Below are positions 1 through 49,248 of a DNA stretch of 64,000 bases, one piece after another (the first letter of the stretch is position 1; each line of letters starts with the position of its first letter). The notes under the pieces are model-generated. The model searched no databases. It was not told where the DNA came from and worked only from the letters and a program-made list of their open reading frames with translations. This DNA comes from Escherichia coli (lineage in GTDB: Bacteria; Pseudomonadota; Gammaproteobacteria; Enterobacterales; Enterobacteriaceae), in assembly GCF_024223415.1 (NCBI RefSeq), contig NZ_CP100500.1; one strand, written 5' to 3'. The position numbers and the translations under genes were made by a program.

Positions 1-232
1 AACTCGCACATCTTTTTCACGTAAGCTATTGTTTATTCCGTTGAACCTCATTTTGAGGTTGATTGACATACCCGGGGTAAACTCATCTGCGTTGCGGTTG
101 TATATCTGGGTGATTTTATCGCCGCGCGAATACCCCAGCGCAGTAGCCAGCGTTGCGGCGGTGAACCACTGCCTGCCGTTGTGTTCGGTAGTTTCGAGAA
201 CGTGAGATTTGAATACGAGTTGGGTACTCATA
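1..232 (-). CDS. Bro-N / antirepressor-like protein, N-terminal part only (gene runs off the window start)
   Basis: Own translation of the reverse strand from the ATG at 230-232: MSTQLVFKSHVLETTEHNGRQWFTAATLATALGYSRGDKITQIYNRNADEF..., which resembles phage Bro-N domain proteins. Not in the ORF track because it is open-ended. Confidence 0.45.
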
Positions 233-613
233 GTTTTATGTCCTTTGCAATATTTTGAATTCACCCCTTTTGAGAGGGCGGTCAGGCGCTCAAAACCGTG
301 CAAAGTCGGCGGGCGTATTTCCCTTACGGGTATTGTATTAGCCTCACGCCCGACCATTGAATTCTCAATATCGTGGACATAAAAAATCCGCATGTCTGTC
401 GGGTGCGGTTTCCGCTTTGCAAGGTGTTTTGAGCACCATGACGCGGAATATAGCCCCGTTAACGCGACATTGTCAAACTGAAGAATTTTACGGATAGCAA
501 AAACCCCCGAACTGGTGAGGAACAGGGGTTTTTACTTTACTACTGATTTCGCGGTACGCTGATCTCAAACAGACGAGATTATCACCAGACTTGTAAAGTA
601 AGCAATGGGCGGA

Positions 614-1357
614 TTAAGATGAAGCGTTCGCTATCTGAGCGTCGCTGAATGTGAAACCCGCCTGTTTAAGACGCTGGATTAAGCGGGGTACTGTCTCCCG
701 AACATGGTCATTAAAGTTGAGATAAAGAATACCGGCGGCATCAGAAGGCTGCTCAAGGTGTTGTTTCTGCAGGATGACCACGTTACTGCGACCGAGTGAA
801 GATAACAGCATCCCCATTTCTAAAACTACGTTTTGGCGTGCCCTGGGCTGGGCTGCTTCCTGGCCGTCTCTTTTGGCGTATCCCACATCATCGGGAGTGA
901 GGAGAACAATGCCGAAACGCGTCGCTGTCCGTCCCTGACCAATTTCACGTTCAAGCTCTTCAATTATCGTAAGCCCGGTCCCACCGGTATTCTGCAAAAT
1001 AAAATGGTCAGGTAATCCAAGCTTATGAAGAATAAGTTCAAGCTGCTCTTTTGCTACATGATCGTGACCGTGAACGATGAAAATCTTTTTTGCTGGTTCT
1101 TGCATCATGACTGGAGCGTTACCCAGGTGTTCATTAATAATGGCTTCAACCTCAGGTTTTGCCGCTTGTGAACCCTGAATCAAAATCGTTCCGGTGTGGT
1201 AAAGCGTTATGATGGCACCATTACTTAAACGATAACAATCATGACCGGTTTTGTTTTCTTCTCCGGTAACATCAAATCCGGATTCGACTAAAAATTGACG
1301 AAAAGTATCGACAGCGTATGGGTATTTGAGTGCCATTTCATTGAGTTCCTGCATCAT
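614..1357 (-). CDS. Two-domain protein: unknown ~85-aa N-terminal domain plus C-terminal TIR-like domain (FIVHGHD ... LLTPDDVG ... RARQNVVLEMG ... LGR motifs, as in the CAP12/PycTIR-type TIR-like family). Candidate defence/abortive-infection effector
   Basis: 247-aa ORF; motif pattern recalled from the predicted nucleotide-binding TIR-like family; gene is bracketed by an exact 15-bp direct repeat and followed by a hairpin with T-tract. Confidence 0.5.
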   Translation of the reverse strand: MMQELNEMALKYPYAVDTFRQFLVESGFDVTGEENKTGHDCYRLSNGAIITLYHTGTILIQGSQAAKPEVEAIINEHLGNAPVMMQEPAKKIFIVHGHDHVAKEQLELILHKLGLPDHFILQNTGGTGLTIIEELEREIGQGRTATRFGIVLLTPDDVGYAKRDGQEAAQPRARQNVVLEMGMLLSSLGRSNVVILQKQHLEQPSDAAGILYLNFNDHVRETVPRLIQRLKQAGFTFSDAQIANASS

Positions 1358-1410
1358 TGTGTTCCTGTAAAGTAAGCAATAGTTAACAAAGTTGCAACGA
1401 CAACGATCAC

Positions 1411-3477
1411 CTAATCTTTTCTGTAACGGTACGCCTCGAATCCTCCGGCGTTTAGTGGAATGCTCGTGGCCCAGTCAGGAACGGTTGCCAGTAACTGGCT
1501 GAGATGTTCTGCTGAGTAATCGGGTGAGTCAGGGGCCTCACTTATAATTTCATCGTGTACCGTCAGCACAATGCTGTAACCGGCATCTTCGATAAGCGGC
1601 ATGTTTCCGGCCAGAACGTCGCGGGCGGCCGCCTGGGTGACGTTCTCCACCAGCTTTCCGCCGTAGGTTTTGAGTCGTTGCCATTTACGCGAATAAGAGT
1701 TAACACCCATATAGGTGATATCCCCTTTTTCGATAACCGGAGACGGGTAGCATACAGCGCGTCCGGATGGTAGCTGTATGCGCAGCCACGCGCCATCGCG
1801 GCGGATTTTAAGATAACCGCAATACAATGTTTTTTGCGGTGTGGCGATTGCAGTGCGGACGGTGCGCTCCAGTTCGTACCAGAAATCGCAGGTCGCCGGG
1901 TGCGCCCTGCGCCACAGGCGCTTGAGCGAGTCACATGCGATGAATACACGCTCGGACAGGCCAAAGGTCGACTTACGTTTAACCGATTCGTCGTACCAGC
2001 TTTTCGCCTCGCGGATAACATCGCGGGGAATGTTTGGCAGTGCGGCGTTCGCCAGCTCGTCGAGATCGAGACCGTAAACCAGAGCAAAAGTGATGAAAGC
2101 CGATACACCACCTCCATAACCCAGACCGAGTTCCATGACTTTACCGATCTGACGCATGTGTTTATCAACATCATCTGGTGCAATATCGAAAGCTTTTGCA
2201 TACGCCAGTTTATATAAGTCCGGACCCGTTCCGGCGTCGTACTCTCTGAATGCATTCAGTTTCCATTCTTCTCCCGCCAGCCATGCCAGCATACGGCCTT
2301 CAATGTTCGACAAGTCACTTACCACCAGTTTTTTGCCTGTTGGCGCGATAATGCAGCCACGTAACGCTGAACTGGTTAGTTCCATGATATTGTCAAACAG
2401 CAGGTCTGCACATCCGGCTTTCAGTGCTTCGATGCCTTCGTCTATTTGTTCCTGTTTTAGTGAAGGGCGGGGAAGGTTCTGGGGCTGGAATAGCCGTCCG
2501 GCCCAACGACCGGTACGTGACGCCCCGCAGAACTGTAGCGTACCGCGTAAGCGCCCGTCGTGGCTTACGCCTTTCATCAGTGCCTTGTATTTACTGGTGC
2601 TGGTAGTACTGGCCTGCAGGCGGATAGCCAGCAGTTCTTTCACGGCAGATGGTAAATTGGGGTCGGCAATACGACGTTCCAGAGTACTGCGTTGCATGTC
2701 TGGTAGCTCCACACCGTAGGATTCAACAATGTGCTTAATCAACGCGTCCCGTTGTGTGGCTGCCTGCACTTCGCCATCAGTCATTTCCTGTGTACGCTTT
2801 GCCAGGCGCTTTTGCTCCTGGTCTACCGCTTCGATCGCAGCGCGCGCGAGTTGAATGTCCATGCAGACGCCCCGGTCGTTGATCTGCTGATCACGATGCC
2901 AGAGTGCCAGTTCTGTCCCCTGATAATTCCACTTCGGCAGACGTTTATAGACTTCGCGCATTGCCTCGATATCCAGTCCGGCGTAAGCAACAAAGCGCCG
3001 CCATTCTTCCGGGTGGGTTTTGCTGGTGGCCCGGCGCAGTTTGCTGTTTTTCGGGCGTGGTTTGCACAGTAGCTGAATTAGTGACTTGCCTTCTTTATCC
3101 TTCGCTTTGTCCTGCGGGACGCCCAGCACTTCGCAAAGAGCGCCCAGCGCCCCCGGAAGACCATGCGCCAGCGCCTGCACCATTGTGTCGCGCCAGCGTT
3201 CAGTAGCTGGTGACATGTCTGGCATACAATGACGAAGTATCGTGCGGTCAAAGTGCGAATTGTGCGCCCAAACCTCCACATCCGGGTTTTTGAGTGCGAG
3301 ACGTAATTCCGGGGGGATTTTTTCGCCTGCGGTCAGGTCCCACACCTGCACGGGATCGTTATTGATGGCCCAGGCAAAAAGCATAATTTCAGCGCCTTCT
3401 GCATATGCGTGGGTACCGTTTTTTATCGGTATTTCAGAGAAGGTTTCAAGATCGAGCCAGAGAATGTTTGCAGGCAA
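1411..3477 (-). CDS. Phage family-A DNA polymerase with N-terminal DnaQ-like 3'-5' exonuclease
   Basis: 688-aa ORF; exonuclease motif LDLETFS near the N-terminus; polymerase motifs [16 protein letters not shown] (motif B-like K...YG) and VHDEI (motif C-like). Confidence 0.85.
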
Positions 3478-39477: not shown

Positions 39478-41292
39478 ATGGCGGCTGTAAAAATTTCAGG
39501 CGTGCTGAGGGACGGAACCGGAAAACCGGTACCGGGATGCATTATTGAGCTGAAAGCGAAGAGAACCAGCGAGACAGTCATCGCCACGACAGTGGCTTAT
39601 GGCATGCCGGAAGAGACGGGGAGTTACAGTATGGATGTGGAGCCAGGAATATACAGGGTGACACTCAATACAGAAGGTTACCGTCCTTCGTATGTGGGAG
39701 ATATCGTGGTCAGGGAGGATTCTTCACCGGGAACACTGAATAAATTTCTGATGGAGATGGAAGATGCTCCTTATTATCCGAAGGCGTTGTCAGAGCTGGA
39801 GGCTGTGGTGCAGTCCATACTGCACAGAGCAGAGTCCGCGGCATCTGAGGCGGAGGAAGCCCGGAAACGAGCAGCATCTGCCCGGGGACCACGAGGAGAG
39901 AAAGGGGATACCGGCGCTCGTGGTGAAAGAGGCATTACCGGGCCACAGGGGCCAAAAGGTGAAACAGGAGCACGTGGCCCGGCAGGACCACAGGGACCAA
40001 AAGGTGAAACAGGTGAACGCGGTCCGGCAGGTCCACAGGGACTAAAGGGCGATACAGGTGAACGCGGCCCGGCAGGTCCACAGGGACCAAAGGGTGAAAC
40101 AGGTGCACGCGGCCCGGCAGGTCCACAGGGAGCAAAGGGCGAAACAGGTGAACGCGGCCCGGCAGGTCCACAGGGAGCAAAGGGCGAAACAGGTGCACGT
40201 GGTCCGGAAGGCCCTCAGGGTCTGAAGGGAGAAAAGGGTGAGCGAGGAGAAAAAGGCCCTAAGGGGGATAAAGGAGATCCGGGAGGTCCACAGGGACCAA
40301 AGGGGGATACAGGTGAACGCGGCCCGGCAGGTCCACAGGGATCAAAGGGCGATACAGGTGAACGTGGCCCGGCAGGTCCTCAGGGACCAAAGGGGGATAC
40401 AGGTGAACGTGGCCCGGAAGGTCCACAGGGAGCAAAGGGTGAAACAGGTGAACGCGGCCCGGCAGGACCACAGGGACCAAAAGGTGAAACAGGTGAACGC
40501 GGTCCGACAGGTCCACAGGGAGCAAAAGGTGAAACAGGAGCACGCGGTCCGGCAGGTCCTCAGGGACCAAGAGGAGAGTCAGCCCGTGGACAACTGCTGA
40601 ATGGTGATCTGAACCGACTGGGACGAGTGACCGATCAGGGTGATTATTATCAGCCATCAGACAGTGGGGCTACACGAGAAAATAATTATCCGATTCAGAG
40701 AGCGGGTTATCTTCAGGTAAGAGTTGGTGCATGGGGATATTGCCAGCATGAATATACAACCTGGAACCCACCACGAAAGTTCGTAAGAACTGTTACTGGT
40801 AATTTTACCGGTAATGGCCCCTGGTCTGAATGGAAAGAGCTGGGAGCCCAGGGGGAGCGTGGTCCACAGGGACCAAAAGGTGAAACAGGTGCACGCGGTC
40901 CGGCAGGTCCACAGGGACTAAAGGGCGAAACAGGTGCACGTGGCCTGGCAGGTCCTCGGGGGCCAAGAGGGTATACAGGTGAACGCGGCCCGGCAGGTCC
41001 ACAGGGGCCAAGAGGAGAAGCGGGGCGGCCAGCGAGCGTCGGAAGTGTTTATTCCGTGGGGTCTTATGTTCTGGGGATCATAGAACGAAATCATGAGATA
41101 ACAAATACCCGTCAAATACCCGGGTATCGTATCAGACAGGCCGTTATTGTGTCGTCGTCATCGGATAAACTTACAGATATCCGCTTTTTATTTGGCAATC
41201 CTATGCTTGGTACATGGATGTTATGCACAACTAACATGACGGTGAATAATATCAGTGGGACGATTTGGGGCCTGTTTCAGAGAATACTGTGA
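39478..41292 (+). CDS. stf: Side tail fibre protein (Stf-like N-terminus) with long collagen-like Gly-X-Y repeat region
   Basis: N-terminus [18 protein letters not shown] resembles lambda Stf; two blocks of GXY triplets ([19 protein letters not shown]...). Confidence 0.8.
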
Positions 41293-42321: not shown

Positions 42322-43731
42322 ATGAAATTTATAATGGCAAAGAATGTATTGGCAATGGCGGTTACCGGTGCGCTGTTATGTTACTCTGTGGGGGTTATGG
42401 CAGAAGAGAGTTTTAATGTAGATGGATATGAGGTTACTCTGTATGATAATGGTGCGGCAGTAATATCAAAAGGTAATGATGTTAATCTTATTAATACTAT
42501 TACTGGAGCTAATACAGGGCGTATTGTCCCGAATGATTCTATTACGCGTGCTATATTAGCAGCTCCTGAGAATGCTAGGCATATTGTTGCTCAGGATTTG
42601 CTAACTTACCCCATCTACTCAGATGCATTAAAAGCCGAAAACATCAGAAATATAAAAGCAGAAGATATAAAGTCCATTGTTGATACAAAAGAATCACTAC
42701 AAAAAATAATCAAGCCAGAAAACAAGGATGATTATATCGCCGCTGTTAATGCTGGTGGTACCGCTGAGGATTTTATTAAAATTAGTAATACAACATCGGG
42801 ATTGTCATCATTGTATAAAAATGTAGTTGAAGGCCAGAATTTTGTTCTGGATTCATCAGGCCGAATCACTGCTGACGGAAGGGCTGACGGAAATGCTCAG
42901 ACAGTCCCTGTTAAAGAATTCGTCGTGGAGCTGGATAATCGTACCCGCAACCTTGGGGTTGAAGTGAAATCACAGGGAGACAGTCTGCGTGGTGAGATAG
43001 GTGGTGTATACAGAGATGCCCGTGCTCATACTGACAGTCAGGTCACAGCAGTACGTGATGAACTGAAGGCAGAGGGAGACAGTCTGCGCGGTGAGATAGG
43101 CGGTGTATACAGAGATGCCCGTGCTCATACTGACAGTCAGGTTACAGCAGTACGTGATGAACTCAGCAGGGATATTATTGCAGGCACATCGGCAGCGGTG
43201 GCGTATACGGATGCATCTTCTCTTGCTCTTCAGGATGAAATAAAAGAAAAAGCGGATGAAACAGTTCAGGTTTCCCGGGCTTATACAGATAAAAGTGTAC
43301 GGGATGCCCGTAAAGAAGCGAAAAGCCAGGCAGAACATCTCAGCGATGTGCTTGTGAAGAACAGGGCGCAGACGGATGCAGCAATAGCCTCAAATACAGC
43401 AGCGATAAGGAATAACAGTCATCGTCTGGATTTGACGGAAGCCTGGCAGAAGATGGCGACAGAGAGAATGAATAATATGCAGGAGCAGATTAAAGAGAAC
43501 CGGAAGGAGTTAAGGGAGAGTGCAGCCCAGAGCGCGGCACTGGCCGGTCTTTTCCAGCCATACAGTGTTGGAAAATTTAACGCGACAGCAGCCGTTGGTG
43601 GTTACCGTGATGAGCAGGCCATTGCGGTGGGCGTGGGCTACCGTTTCACAGAGAATGTGGCAGGAAAAGTTGCAGTTGCTGCAGGTGGGTCATCCGCATC
43701 GTGGAATGCTGGTGTGAATTTTGAGTTCTGA
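42322..43731 (+). CDS. Trimeric autotransporter adhesin-like protein (YadA-like C-terminal anchor); resembles prophage-encoded Eib immunoglobulin-binding proteins
   Basis: Signal peptide; coiled-coil stalk with 33-aa tandem repeat; C-terminal anchor [10 protein letters not shown] ... [20 protein letters not shown]. Confidence 0.7.
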
Positions 43732-43791
43732 CAGGTCAGGATTTAGATATCTGTCCCGGGGGAGTCCCCCGGGATATAATGAGGTACAGAG

Positions 43792-44247
43792 ATGCTGGAT
43801 ATAATCCTGGCGACGAGAGATATTTATTTTGAAAAAGCCCTGCGAGAGATATTTGGAACCGTAAGCAGTCGAATCAGATATATAGAAGATGCCATATCAG
43901 ACAGAAGAAGGGTGCAGTCAGGCAGGTCATTCAGATATTATTTTGTATTCTGTGATGATGAGTATACAGATATTGTTCGTATTCTTTTTACCGGAGAGGC
44001 CTGCTGTATTCTGAATAAGTCGATGCTGAATCTGAGAGCGGCCGGAGGTGTGTTGACGCTGGAAGAGCGCAGAGCGGTACTGAACCGGTATTACAGAGGT
44101 TTAAGTATTGCGGAGATTACAGAAGAGACGGGGCAGAATGACAAGACGGTATACGGTCATCTTCGTCGTGCACTGCAGCGGTCTGGATTCCGGAAGGGGC
44201 GTTTTATAAAGGGGAGAGAAGCTGCGGGGGATTCAGGTGTTGAATAA
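43792..44247 (+). CDS. Putative LuxR/GerE-type HTH transcriptional regulator
   Basis: C-terminal LTLEERRAVLNRYYRGLSIAEITEETGQNDKTVYGHLRRALQ fits a LuxR-type HTH. Confidence 0.4.
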   Translation: MLDIILATRDIYFEKALREIFGTVSSRIRYIEDAISDRRRVQSGRSFRYYFVFCDDEYTDIVRILFTGEACCILNKSMLNLRAAGGVLTLEERRAVLNRYYRGLSIAEITEETGQNDKTVYGHLRRALQRSGFRKGRFIKGREAAGDSGVE

Positions 44248-44358
44248 TGTATCTTATATTGTGATATCGGTGCTGCTGCTGTTATTTTTTGTTGTATTTG
44301 TGACGAATGGTTAAGAATAAAACATGAGTTGGTGATTATCAGGACAGGTTGCTTGTAT

Positions 44359-44454
44359 ATGAAGATAACAAAGGCGGCATTTATTTTTGCGCTGTCAGTG
44401 TGGAGTGTTGCTGTGATATGTCTTTTATTATTTGTACTGGTTGTTCTGGGATAG
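44359..44454 (+). CDS. Very small hydrophobic peptide (31 aa), possible small membrane protein
   Basis: Own translation MKITKAAFIFALSVWSVAVICLLLFVLVVLG in an AT-rich spacer. Confidence 0.2.
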   Translation: MKITKAAFIFALSVWSVAVICLLLFVLVVLG

Positions 44455-44630
44455 CTATAGTGGAATTATTATTTTTTTAAGACTATGGTTTATATTTTTA
44501 TTCGGCAATATTTCTGTAAACAATTAAATATCAGAAAGGCGTGTTGTATGCGTGAACACGCCTGAGTATGTATACAGAGATTGTTAATTTGGAGAGAATA
44601 ATTACAGTTGTTATTTATTTGACGTCCTGA

Positions 44631-44879
44631 TTAGTGAAAAAACCAGTCATCAGCAGTTTCCCAGACTTCCTGCAGCGTTTCCTGTATGAACTTCTGAGCG
44701 TTTTCTTTATCTACGGCTCTTAAAATTGTCAGTCCGTCATTACTGGCGGATTTTACTATAACCTCCACATCGTCATATCGTTTTCTGATACGGCGAGACA
44801 TTTCCTGTTGTAGAGCAGGTACAGAGCCTTTTGGCATTTTGCTGAATTTTTCTTTAGCGATACAGATCTCAATACGCAT
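44631..44879 (-). CDS. DinI-like protein (prophage-encoded DinI family)
   Basis: [35 protein letters not shown] ... [14 protein letters not shown] resembles E. coli DinI as recalled. Confidence 0.7.
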
Positions 44880-45184
44880 AAAAGTCCCTCTACACTGTGT
44901 TTGTATACAGTATTATTTTTAACTGTATGGATAAACAGTGTCAAGGTTTTCAATTTCGAAGCGGGAGTCAAGGGCTTTGTGTTGCTGAACTTATGCAAAA
45001 TTTTTTTGCATCATAAATCCAACAACACATTCAATAACACATTACTGCATAACCATGAAAATAAATGTATTTTTATTTAATTTCACACATATCACAATTG
45101 ATGCATTTTTTAGTGATTAACAGCGCCATAAGGAAACTCTCAAAACAACACAAACCGGGCGGGCATTATACGCGCATTCTTTAC

Positions 45185-46033
45185 TCAAACCAGTTTTTTC
45201 ACCAGTGCCTCGCTGTGACGAATGCGCTCAGGGGCCAGTTCGAGATCCTGCTGGATTAGCGCAATGAACAGCAAATCTGTAAGCATTCCCTGAGCGTGAC
45301 AAGCGGAGATCGACGCACTATTCGTCGCCTGTTCTTCGGCAATAGTATACAGGCAATGGGATGCTCGTTGTTGCAGAGCATTCGGCGTGAAACCGGTAAT
45401 TGCCAGCACCTTTCCACCCACGCGCAGCATCTCATCCGCCGCGAGATTCAACTCACGTCGTACACCAGTGTAAGAGATGGCTAATAACAGATCGTCCGGT
45501 GAGGATGCCTGTACAGTAGCGAGCAACGCATGCATATCGCGTTCTGCGGCAGCATTGAAACCAATCTTCATCAGTTTCCAGGCAAAGTTTTGCGCTACCA
45601 GACCCGAAGCGCCAATGCCAGTCAAAATAATCCGCCGTGCAGAACGCAACATCACCACGCATTCATGTAATTTCTCTTCACTGTTAACGTTCAGTGTCGC
45701 ATACATGGCAGCCGTGTTTTCTTTTATGAGCTTTTCACCCACCAGTCGCAGCGGATCATCACCGCGAATTTGGTTATGAATGGGGACAGAAGGGGATTCC
45801 GGCTGGCTCGCCAGAGCTTCGCTTAACGCGAGTTTTAAGGCAGGAAAACCTTTATAGCCGAGTTTTTGCGCGAACTTCACGACGCTGGACTGACTGACTC
45901 CGGCTTCGTTGGCCAGTTGCTGAGAGCTTAAATGGCGCGCCGTATCAGGTTGTAGCAGCAGATAATCCGCCAGTTTTTTATCACTCTGGGCAAGCCCCTG
46001 GTAACGCTGACGGATACGAAGTAAGCCGTTCAT
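45185..46033 (-). CDS. yfhH: RpiR-family transcriptional regulator (HTH plus SIS domain), YfhH-like
   Basis: HTH SQQLANEAGVSQSSVVKFAQKLGYKGF and SIS-domain region; conserved neighbour of pgpC/tadA; start taken at MNGLLRIRQ. Confidence 0.85.
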   Translation of the reverse strand: MNGLLRIRQRYQGLAQSDKKLADYLLLQPDTARHLSSQQLANEAGVSQSSVVKFAQKLGYKGFPALKLALSEALASQPESPSVPIHNQIRGDDPLRLVGEKLIKENTAAMYATLNVNSEEKLHECVVMLRSARRIILTGIGASGLVAQNFAWKLMKIGFNAAAERDMHALLATVQASSPDDLLLAISYTGVRRELNLAADEMLRVGGKVLAITGFTPNALQQRASHCLYTIAEEQATNSASISACHAQGMLTDLLFIALIQQDLELAPERIRHSEALVKKLV

Positions 46034-46241
46034 ATCTTTCCTCGCGATGAAATAGTGGCGACAACAGGCAATATGAGACACACGCGAGTGAATTTTATAT
46101 TCCATTGCCGCTAATTGCCATGAATTAAAAATTCCAGTTAGCCATGATGCGGTCGATTGTTGCCGGAAAAGTGATGATCTATCTGTTAGGCTATGTAGTA
46201 GCGAAAATTAATCAGGATGTTTCAGTCCAGAGGAGTATGGT

Positions 46242-46877
46242 TTGGCAACTCACGAGCGTCGTGTGGTGTTTTTTGACTTAGATGGAACATTGCATCAGCA
46301 GGATATGTTCGGCAGTTTTCTGCGCTATTTACTGCGTCGCCAACCGCTGAATGCGTTACTTGTCCTGCCGTTGTTGCCGATTATAGCCATTGCGTTATTG
46401 ATAAAAGGTCGTGCGGCACGCTGGCCGATGAGTCTGCTTCTGTGGGGATGCACTTTTGGTCACAATGAAGCGCGTTTGCAGGCGTTGCAGGCCGATTTCG
46501 TACGCTGGTTTCGTGACAATGTTACCGCCTTTCCGCTGGTTCAGGAGCGATTAACCACCTACCTGTTAAGTTCTGATGCTGATATCTGGTTGATTACCGG
46601 CTCTCCGCAGCCGCTGGTTGAAGCGGTTTATTTCGATACGCCCTGGCTGCCGCGAGTTAATCTTATCGCCAGCCAAATTCAGCGTGGCTATGGTGGTTGG
46701 GTATTGACGATGCGTTGTCTGGGACATGAAAAGGTCGCACAACTGGAGCGCAAAATCGGCACGCCGCTGCGGCTGTACAGTGGCTATAGCGACAGTAATC
46801 AGGACAATCCGCTGCTTTATTTCTGTCAGCATCGTTGGCGAGTAACCCCGCGCGGTGAACTCCAGCAACTGGAATAG
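46242..46877 (+). CDS. pgpC: Phosphatidylglycerophosphatase C (HAD-family)
   Basis: FFDLDGTL HAD motif I, TM helix; conserved position next to tadA. Confidence 0.85.
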   Translation: MATHERRVVFFDLDGTLHQQDMFGSFLRYLLRRQPLNALLVLPLLPIIAIALLIKGRAARWPMSLLLWGCTFGHNEARLQALQADFVRWFRDNVTAFPLVQERLTTYLLSSDADIWLITGSPQPLVEAVYFDTPWLPRVNLIASQIQRGYGGWVLTMRCLGHEKVAQLERKIGTPLRLYSGYSDSNQDNPLLYFCQHRWRVTPRGELQQLE

Positions 46878-46889
46878 AGTAAAGCATAG

Positions 46890-48991
<2,102 letters not shown>

Positions 48992-49156
48992 TTAGTTAAT
49001 TCTCTGTGTCGTGCGCGTCCCAGCTTGAAAAAACGTAATAATAGTGAAAGGTTTACTCATAAATGAGCGGCATTTTGCGTAAACCTGCGCCAGATGGCAA
49101 CTTATTACAGCCATTGGCGGCACGCGTTGCTAATTCACGATGGTGATTTTATTTCC

Positions 49157-49172
49157 ACGCAAACGGTTTCGT
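49157..49172. promoter_or_regulatory. PurR operator box upstream of purL, with a TATAAT -10 element at 49190..49195
   Basis: acgcaaacggtttcgt resembles the PurR box consensus (ACGCAAACGTTTGCGT). Confidence 0.75.
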
Positions 49173-49248
49173 CAGCGCATCAGATTCTTTATAATGACGC
49201 CCGTTTCCCCCCCTTGGGTACACCGAAAGCTTAGAAGACGAGAGACTT

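Follow-up and report, generated by a model that had tools for sequence, protein, structure and literature searches.

Where exactly does the prophage at this Escherichia coli locus end, and what did its integration do to the host gene at that point? The interval between the DinI-like gene and yfhH comprises exactly positions 44880-45184 of the window (the whole stretch of DNA analysed, 64,000 nucleotides), and a preliminary description of this DNA had placed a prophage-host junction in it, with the insertion in the spacer between yfhH and yfhL. Our analysis makes it very probable that this interval is the attR of a prophage, ~47-49 kb long and carrying lambda-like tail genes, that a tyrosine integrase made the insertion into the 5' end of yfhL, and that yfhL is rebuilt at attL in related lysogens.

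Table 1. Features of the attR interval and of the genes on either side, in window coordinates
Feature	Position	Strand	Evidence
DinI-like gene, last phage gene before the attachment site	44631..44879	(-)	Pfam DinI 2.3e-19; PHROG_189 (RecA filament binding protein DinI) 2.8e-27
SOS-type promoter of the dinI-like gene	44893..44944	(-)	TTGACA-18 nt-AAAAAT (44944-44915), promoter-like site scoring 10/12
Two LexA-box-like CTGT-N8-ACAG sites	44895-44910, 44923-44938		Within or beside the dinI-like promoter
Conserved 107-bp attP arm from the phage (phage half of attR)	44975..45081	.	Conservation among lysogens
Candidate arm-type site 1, GCAACACAAA	44976..44985	(-)	RCAACACAWW motif; offset of -102/-103 relative to the crossover in both diverged attP types
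Inverted repeat atgcaaaatttttttgcat (ATGCAAAA-TTT-TTTTGCAT), 19 nt	44993..45011	.	Perfectly complementary arms of 8 nt around a 3-nt loop
Candidate arm-type sites 2 and 3, ACAACACATT and ATAACACATT	45022..45043	(+)	Direct repeat, 12-bp spacing; -61 and -49 in both attP types
TGAAAATAAATG block	45056..45067	.	Conserved in both attP types between arm sites and core; invariant in compared attR arms
yfhL 5' remnant, 18-codon ORF MALLITKKCINCDMCEIK followed by a stop	45073..45129	(-)	Translation; 16 host codons (45082-45129) and phage arm
att core, 18 bp, TTCACACATATCACAATT	45082..45099	.	Common to attB (SCU-316, ATCC 25922), attR (window, B771, O103) and attL (B771, O103)
Host yfhH-yfhL spacer, intact, 55 bp	45130..45184	.	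Same length in K-12 and ATCC 25922
yfhH, RpiR/MurR-family regulator, first complete host gene	45185..46033	(-)	Pfam HTH_6 (RpiR-type) and SIS; 849-nt yfhH annotated in relatives

The prophage-host junction

The phage genes end at the DinI-like gene, as the preliminary description had proposed. Its second proposal, that the host genes begin at yfhH, holds for complete genes, but host DNA already starts at 45082, 103 nt before yfhH, and these 103 nt comprise the 55-nt spacer and 48 nt that code for the start of yfhL. The gene order beyond yfhH (pgpC, tadA, mltF and purL) matches that of K-12.

Alignment with a prophage-free yfhH-yfhL region, the check that the preliminary description had suggested, located the break precisely. 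In a base-by-base comparison the window equals the prophage-free strain SCU-316 from 45082 rightwards over 2,215 nt with no mismatch, and the sequences immediately to the left of this position are unrelated (0 nt identity). When window positions 44500-45500 were compared by megablast with 5,426 complete E. coli genomes, homology started in 5,400+ genomes at query position 583, which corresponds to window 45082, and the annotations under these matches are yfhH and yfhL. The yfhL start codon lies at 45129-45127, and the break falls 48 nt into the open reading frame. The same offset was obtained from the prophage-free strain ATCC 25922, in which the match begins at locus position 3001 and yfhL starts at 3048.

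In K-12, yfhL directly follows yfhH, as the preliminary description had stated. This order, with no gene between the two, was also found in prophage-free strains, including ATCC 25922, as well as SCU-316 and NCTC9112, which lack the prophage at this site and have an intact 86-codon yfhL directly after yfhH. Between yfhH and the junction only the first 16 yfhL codons are present, and no additional host genes were found there. The yfhL stub reads MALLITKKCINCDMCE, followed by two phage codons and a stop, and it keeps the native upstream region at attR; the original 5' end of yfhL persists in this form at the distal border of the prophage.

A host other than E. coli was suspected from the ~89.5% identity of yfhH to most genomes and was ruled out, because only the 3' ~700 bp of yfhH diverge and because several E. 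coli strains, including SCU-316 and NCTC9112, match the 4.1-kb flank at 45100-49200 with 100% identity. The 3' ~700 bp of yfhH (window 45185-45880) show 83-88% identity to K-12, and the adjoining 3.4 kb show 95-100%. The same divergent allele, 100% identical, is present in the prophage-free strains SCU-316 and NCTC9112, and it looks like an imported allele beside the att site of which the prophage is not the cause.

Two minor observations concern the host flank. Positions 45145-45154 of the host spacer (ACAACACAAA) match the motif of the candidate arm-type sites described below and form a 9/9 inverted repeat with 44976-44984; this match could be due to chance or could be a host-side integrase contact. 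Copies of IS1 occur near the locus in relatives, between tadA and mltF in B771 (L001 23005-23702) and in NMBU_W05E18 (L017 1-352), in which the element truncates the attR arm.

The att core and the crossover region

The preliminary description had expected attR to lie within 44880-45184 and had proposed that the core be defined by comparing the two ends of the prophage. This comparison was made in the related lysogens B771 and O103:H2 12009, in which attL and attR share 18 bp, 47,421 bp apart in B771 and 42,710 bp apart in O103:H2 12009; the corresponding 18 bp in the window lie inside the expected interval. On the minus strand the core corresponds to yfhL codons 11-16 of 86 (AAT TGT GAT ATG TGT GAA, N-C-D-M-C-E) and encodes part of the first CxxCxxC iron-sulfur motif of YfhL. 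Because this motif is conserved, the phage has a stable target.

The core is present once in the 64-kb window, and a BLAST search of 44850-45250 against the whole window for a second copy returned only chance matches of 11-12 nt. Since the core is unique in the window, attL must lie outside it, as had been stated for both attL and the integrase. Collinearity with B771 places attL ~4.4 kb before position 1, the window start being ~4.4 kb inside the prophage.

A natural variant allowed the exchange to be bracketed further. In Sx181-0-1 the attL core has the phage-type G at position 13, and the attR core has the host-type A at position 13 and the phage-type GGCG for TTCA at positions 1-4, so that the only core stretch shared by attP and attB of this strain is CACATATC. 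The crossover (overlap) most likely took place within CACATATC (45086-45093), as judged from this one variant, and the length of this stretch fits the typical exchange region of a tyrosine recombinase.

The attP used in this study is a reconstruction of 482 nt. A megablast search for a contiguous attP among 50,697 phage records returned only matches to dinI and three vB_EcoM-6xx records, and an exact search for the attP junction in IMG/VR gave no match. The vB_EcoM-6xx records were rejected as a source of attP, as the one inspected, ON470588.1 ('Escherichia phage vB_EcoM-611R5', L004, described as 'complete phage genome'), contains the host genes yfhH, pgpC and tadA beyond its attachment site, which is an attR. 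This record is a prophage prediction with host flank and does not represent a packaged genome.

Separately, 20 nt of the phage arm to the left of the core (45055-45074, ATGAAAATAAATGTATTTTT) were found to be 75% identical to host positions 45091-45110 (ATCACAATTGATGCATTTTT). These stretches may be similar core-flanking binding sites, or the likeness may be due to chance.

The phage arm of attR and the dinI-like promoter

The left limit of the conserved arm was indicated by the matches to 44946-45099 in 154 E. coli genomes, which start at ~44973-44975, and by O103:H2 12009 and vB_EcoM-611R5, in which unrelated sequence turns into conserved sequence exactly at CTTTGTGTTGC. Within the arm, the motif RCAACACAWW is repeated: candidate sites 2 and 3 (45022-45031 and 45034-45043) are direct repeats of each other and site 1 is inverted. 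Five matches to RCAACACAWW were found in the 64-kb window, where 1.45 are expected, and three of the five are within 180 bp of the junction. In the reconstructed attP the shorter sequence AACACA is present six times (0.34 expected), a number reached in none of 2,000 shuffles. Five of these copies are located at essentially equal offsets from the crossover (-102/-103, -61, -49, +167 and +180) in two attP types, that of the window and B771 and that of Sx181, the left arms of which have otherwise diverged. The copies in the attL arm of B771, two in addition to the three in the attR arm, are conserved in all eight attL arms compared, which come from several genera. From this pattern and its conservation we infer that the AACACA repeats are candidate arm-type sites for the integrase. 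The TGAAAATAAATG block may be a site for an accessory or bending protein; a search of the attR arm for the IHF consensus, allowing up to one mismatch, found none.

The inverted repeat that the preliminary description had noticed in this segment is indeed present; the att core, however, does not coincide with it and lies 71-89 bp to its right. The repeat is inside the phage arm, between the AACACA repeats, and forms the middle part of a longer, imperfect inverted repeat (44978-45029), the outer ends of which are candidate arm-type sites 1 and 2. Its sequence is not conserved in the arm of Sx181-0-1, which has a different A/T-rich quasi-palindrome at this place. The palindrome is better explained as a spacer that can bend, or as a site for an accessory protein, than as a specific signal. 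An intrinsic terminator was ruled out, as there is no U tract and the terminator scan made no call at the repeat. An Rfam search of 44300-45400 found no known RNA family, the sole match being a chance miRNA (E = 0.83).

To the left of the arm, the promoter of the dinI-like gene shows what appears to be the usual SOS-regulated arrangement, with LexA binding predicted from the two CTGT-N8-ACAG sites, which together form an inverted repeat (I1). This pattern has three matches in the 64-kb window (0.68 expected), two of which are at the dinI-like promoter. A gene of the DinI family is located at the same place in the divergent yfhL prophage of Sx181-0-1.

The rebuilt yfhL gene and the integrase at attL in related lysogens

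The attL of B771, O103 and Sx181 contains an intact 86-aa YfhL (WP_000054752.1) beside a divergently oriented gene for a 465-aa tyrosine-type recombinase, the distance between the two genes being 214 bp in B771 and ~215 bp generally. The phage-borne start of yfhL supplies codons 1-10 (ATG TCT TTA CTA ATT ACT AAA CGC TGT ATT), which adjoin the core and encode MSLLITKRCI in place of the host MALLITKKCI. Both changes, A2S and K8R, are conservative. The 30 phage-borne nucleotides differ from those of the host at 12 positions, with five synonymous codons and two amino-acid changes. Because 12 of the 30 nucleotides are changed but eight of the ten residues are kept, and because the reading frame is open across species, the pattern points to purifying selection on coding function.

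The integrase and attL stretch was found in 159 of the 5,426 complete E. coli genomes and the attR arm in 155. An annotated yfhL (PGAP) lies under the match in all 40 rows sampled from the 159 genomes. Sx181-0-1 has 91.9% nucleotide identity over the integrase-attL query. The integrase matches Pfam Phage_integrase (PF00589, 7.6e-7), partially, over residues 246-359, and the PHROG_1 integrase family (1.3e-25); no NCBIfam name was found for it or for the adjacent HTH protein. Eight integrase homologues all share, without variation, the candidate catalytic residues R, K, R, H and Y.

A scan of species-representative genomes identified integrase homologues in Kluyvera, Shimwellia, Enterobacteriaceae bacterium LSJC7, Pantoea, Serratia and two Erwinia MAGs, that is, in seven other species of six genera or groups. 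Amino-acid identity is 67-94% in the six complete genes, and the second Erwinia locus is partial (residues 22-203). Each homologue adjoins yfhL, at ~215 bp from the yfhL start where the integrase start is visible, and the yfhL match next to the homologues spans 81-86 of the 86 residues.

In B771 and the genera compared, the attL arm between yfhL and int keeps a CTGT-N8-ACAG-like site, a TGATAAACT element and the block CATGTGTGAGC. The LexA-box-like site, which is located just upstream of TGATAAACT, is perfect in Kluyvera, Shimwellia, LSJC7 and Pantoea and has one mismatch in the E. coli elements. The TGATAAACT element could be an extended -10 for int, and these features of the arm suggest direct SOS control of int. 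A consensus scan for a sigma-70 promoter on the yfhL strand of the attL phage arm found none, and sub-threshold candidates were seen by eye only. It is a tentative and rather doubtful extension of these observations that the phage might take over the regulation of yfhL by means of its own promoter region and ten codons, with int and possibly yfhL under SOS control and DinI marking the other border of the cassette.

Proposed integration event and alternative explanations

In the proposed mechanism, a tyrosine integrase would insert the prophage into the 5' end of yfhL, which encodes a 4Fe-4S ferredoxin. From left to right, the attR segment is made up of the dinI-like promoter, the 107-bp arm with three candidate AACACA sites around the A/T-rich palindrome, the core, 16 orphaned yfhL codons and the spacer. 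At the far end, in the related lysogens, the phage arm supplies yfhL codons 1-10 and the upstream region, resulting in a full-length 86-aa yfhL beside the divergent integrase gene, and this rebuilt yfhL would presumably be expressed. The attL of the window's own genome is likely to be built in the same manner, given the identical attR arm and the collinearity with B771; its arm is predicted to be ~215 bp long and to contain GCAACACA twice and also TACTGTATGTTGATCCAGTG. Excision would restore the attB sequence GATGCATTTTTTAGTGATTAACAGCGCCAT, and the attP would join a left arm ending in TATTTTTATTTAAT to the core, followed by AATACAGCG.

The spacer insertion of the preliminary description, in which both yfhH and yfhL would be untouched, is correct as to the order of the two genes and as to the position of the junction between yfhH and the remaining yfhL. 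However, the 55-bp spacer is intact, homology continues beyond it for 48 nt into the yfhL coding sequence, and the core itself translates as yfhL codons; the alignment with empty-site genomes refutes the spacer model, which retains virtually no probability. A different possibility is that integration inactivates yfhL and that the full-length open reading frame at attL is a side effect of the att sequence, either not expressed or without function. This possibility is in line with published passages that count yfhL as one of the genes that integrating prophages disrupt in E. coli (Bobay et al. 2013, PMC3603311), with the lack of a consensus promoter in the phage arm on the yfhL strand, and with the separation of yfhL from yfhH and from its native upstream region. 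It was nevertheless judged unlikely in view of the eight residues conserved in the phage-borne codons despite the nucleotide differences, the start codon and open frame retained beside the integrase in seven other species, and the yfhL call by PGAP in all sampled lysogens.

Two further alternatives concern the arm and the completeness of the prophage. The inverted repeat at 44978-45029 might act as an RNA hairpin on the minus strand, blocking or processing read-through from the host promoter of yfhH and truncated yfhL into the dinI-like gene, in which case recombination proteins would not use it as a DNA site. The predicted fold is stronger on the minus strand (-24.3 kcal/mol, z = -4.9) than on the plus strand (-13 kcal/mol, z = -1.5), and all three mismatches between the arms turn into G-U pairs on the minus strand. 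A hairpin leaves unexplained, however, why its arms are AACACA motifs that also occur as direct repeats at conserved offsets in both att arms; Sx181 has another sequence in place of the central palindrome, and the lack of a U tract, a terminator call and an Rfam match also argues against this function, which we consider improbable. Still less probable is that the window's prophage is a remnant or mosaic with a different left end, without a matching integrase or yfhL attL, so that only attR is left. The left end is outside the window, window positions 1-1550 gave no megablast match to B771 and several stretches of the early region also had no close match, and decayed examples are known, such as L6-21, with a tail pseudogene next to attR, and NMBU_W05E18, with IS1 inside the arm. 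On the other hand, the structural and replication genes in the 45 kb of prophage in the window are long and open, ~30 kb of late genes are collinear with B771 at 96-98% identity, window and B771 have attR arms that are 100% identical, and arm and integrase occur together in nearly equal numbers of genomes. The preferred explanation is insertion of the prophage into yfhL, at the 5' end of this gene.

Comparison with other integration systems

Phage lambda integrates between genes (gal-bio), and its int gene is transcribed towards att and retroregulated by sib. The yfhL module resembles the Int/attP system of lambda, whose heterobivalent tyrosine integrase uses arm-type and core-type sites, in its short identity core, its exchange region of 7-8 bp and its five repeated arm motifs, which are candidate sites here, and its long asymmetric arms (~107 bp and ~215-245 bp) are also like those of lambda. 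In contrast to lambda, int of the yfhL module has its transcription starting within the arm and pointing away from att; the int arm holds a conserved LexA-box-like site and the attR arm has no IHF consensus.

Phage 21 and e14 (icd), as well as P22 and P4 (tRNA genes), insert at the 3' ends of genes and duplicate these ends. Such integrators likewise carry a partial copy of the target gene, with the result that its function survives. Because the yfhL module replaces the 5' end, unlike the 3'-end integrators, the phage must supply a start codon, a ribosome-binding site and a promoter. Duplication of 3' ends on integration is mentioned in passages of PMC3603311.

A parallel in kind is provided by the dusA-specific integrases of islands and prophages, which insert within the 5' end of a conserved housekeeping gene, a new 5' end that maintains the reading frame being supplied by the element (Farrugia et al. 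2015, PMC4482086). In dusA elements a remnant of the gene, its old 5' end, stays behind at the far border (PMC4482086). The yfhL module is similar in its 5' insertion, in the reading frame kept open by the 5' end of the element and in the old 5' end at the far border. It differs in the target gene, and the 465-aa integrase gives a weak, partial match to PF00589 and no NCBIfam match.

As a prophage insertion site, yfhL is already known, and a rebuilt 5' end is a known kind of solution. In addition to the E. coli prophages of Bobay et al., which share target gene and species with the prophage of the window, Stx2b prophages have been placed at yfhL in passages of two recent reports (PMC10675304, PMC12029490); the prophage of the window differs from these in that no stx gene was seen in the window. 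The passages concerned name the prophages by site only, a site termed 'disrupted' or 'newly identified', and contain no nucleotide-level core, arm sites or rebuilt 5' end (PMC3603311, PMC10675304, PMC12029490). The sequences compared in this study suggest that yfhL, described as 'disrupted' in the literature, is rebuilt with a phage-borne 5' end, as is the case for dusA.

For annotation, these results set the prophage boundary to the nucleotide, at 45082, and identify the short open reading frame at 45073-45129 as a yfhL remnant. They also describe an integrase family that targets a sequence fixed by an iron-sulfur motif, in E. coli and seven other enterobacterial species. The integrase could serve as a broad-host integration tool, which is an application idea only.

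Relatives and cargo of the prophage

The integration cassette (int and att), together with a replication set consisting of a family-A DNA polymerase, DUF2800, DUF2815 and a helicase, was found in different phage types. In the window and in B771 the cassette is combined with lambda-like siphovirus genes, and in O103:H2 12009 and Sx181 with baseplate-J myovirus-type genes. The module is also present in O55:H7 strains and, overall, in ~3% of complete E. coli genomes.

Beside the family-A DNA polymerase gene of the window (1411-3477), positions 614-1357 (minus strand) encode a 247-aa protein with a TIR domain of the CAP12/Pycsar-effector type (PF10137, 5.6e-31), which is probably anti-phage defence cargo. 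A TIR-domain protein is encoded at the equivalent position in the yfhL prophage of Sx181-0-1.

The region that separates the tail-fibre genes from dinI, where lysogenic-conversion cargo is typically found, encodes at positions 42322-44247 (plus strand) a 469-aa trimeric autotransporter with a YadA anchor (PF03895, 1.2e-16; PDB YadA anchor, 1.8e-17) and, after it, a 151-aa protein that resembles sigma-70 region 4; the same pair is present in B771. A PDB sequence search did not reveal an Eib-type identity for the YadA-like protein, its matches being limited to the YadA anchor and two further chains of the adhesin type. The tail-fibre protein encoded at 39478-41292 (plus strand) contains very long collagen-like G-x-y repeats, and this region gives rise to overlapping repeat-derived open reading frames on both strands and to internal repeats in the alignment with B771.
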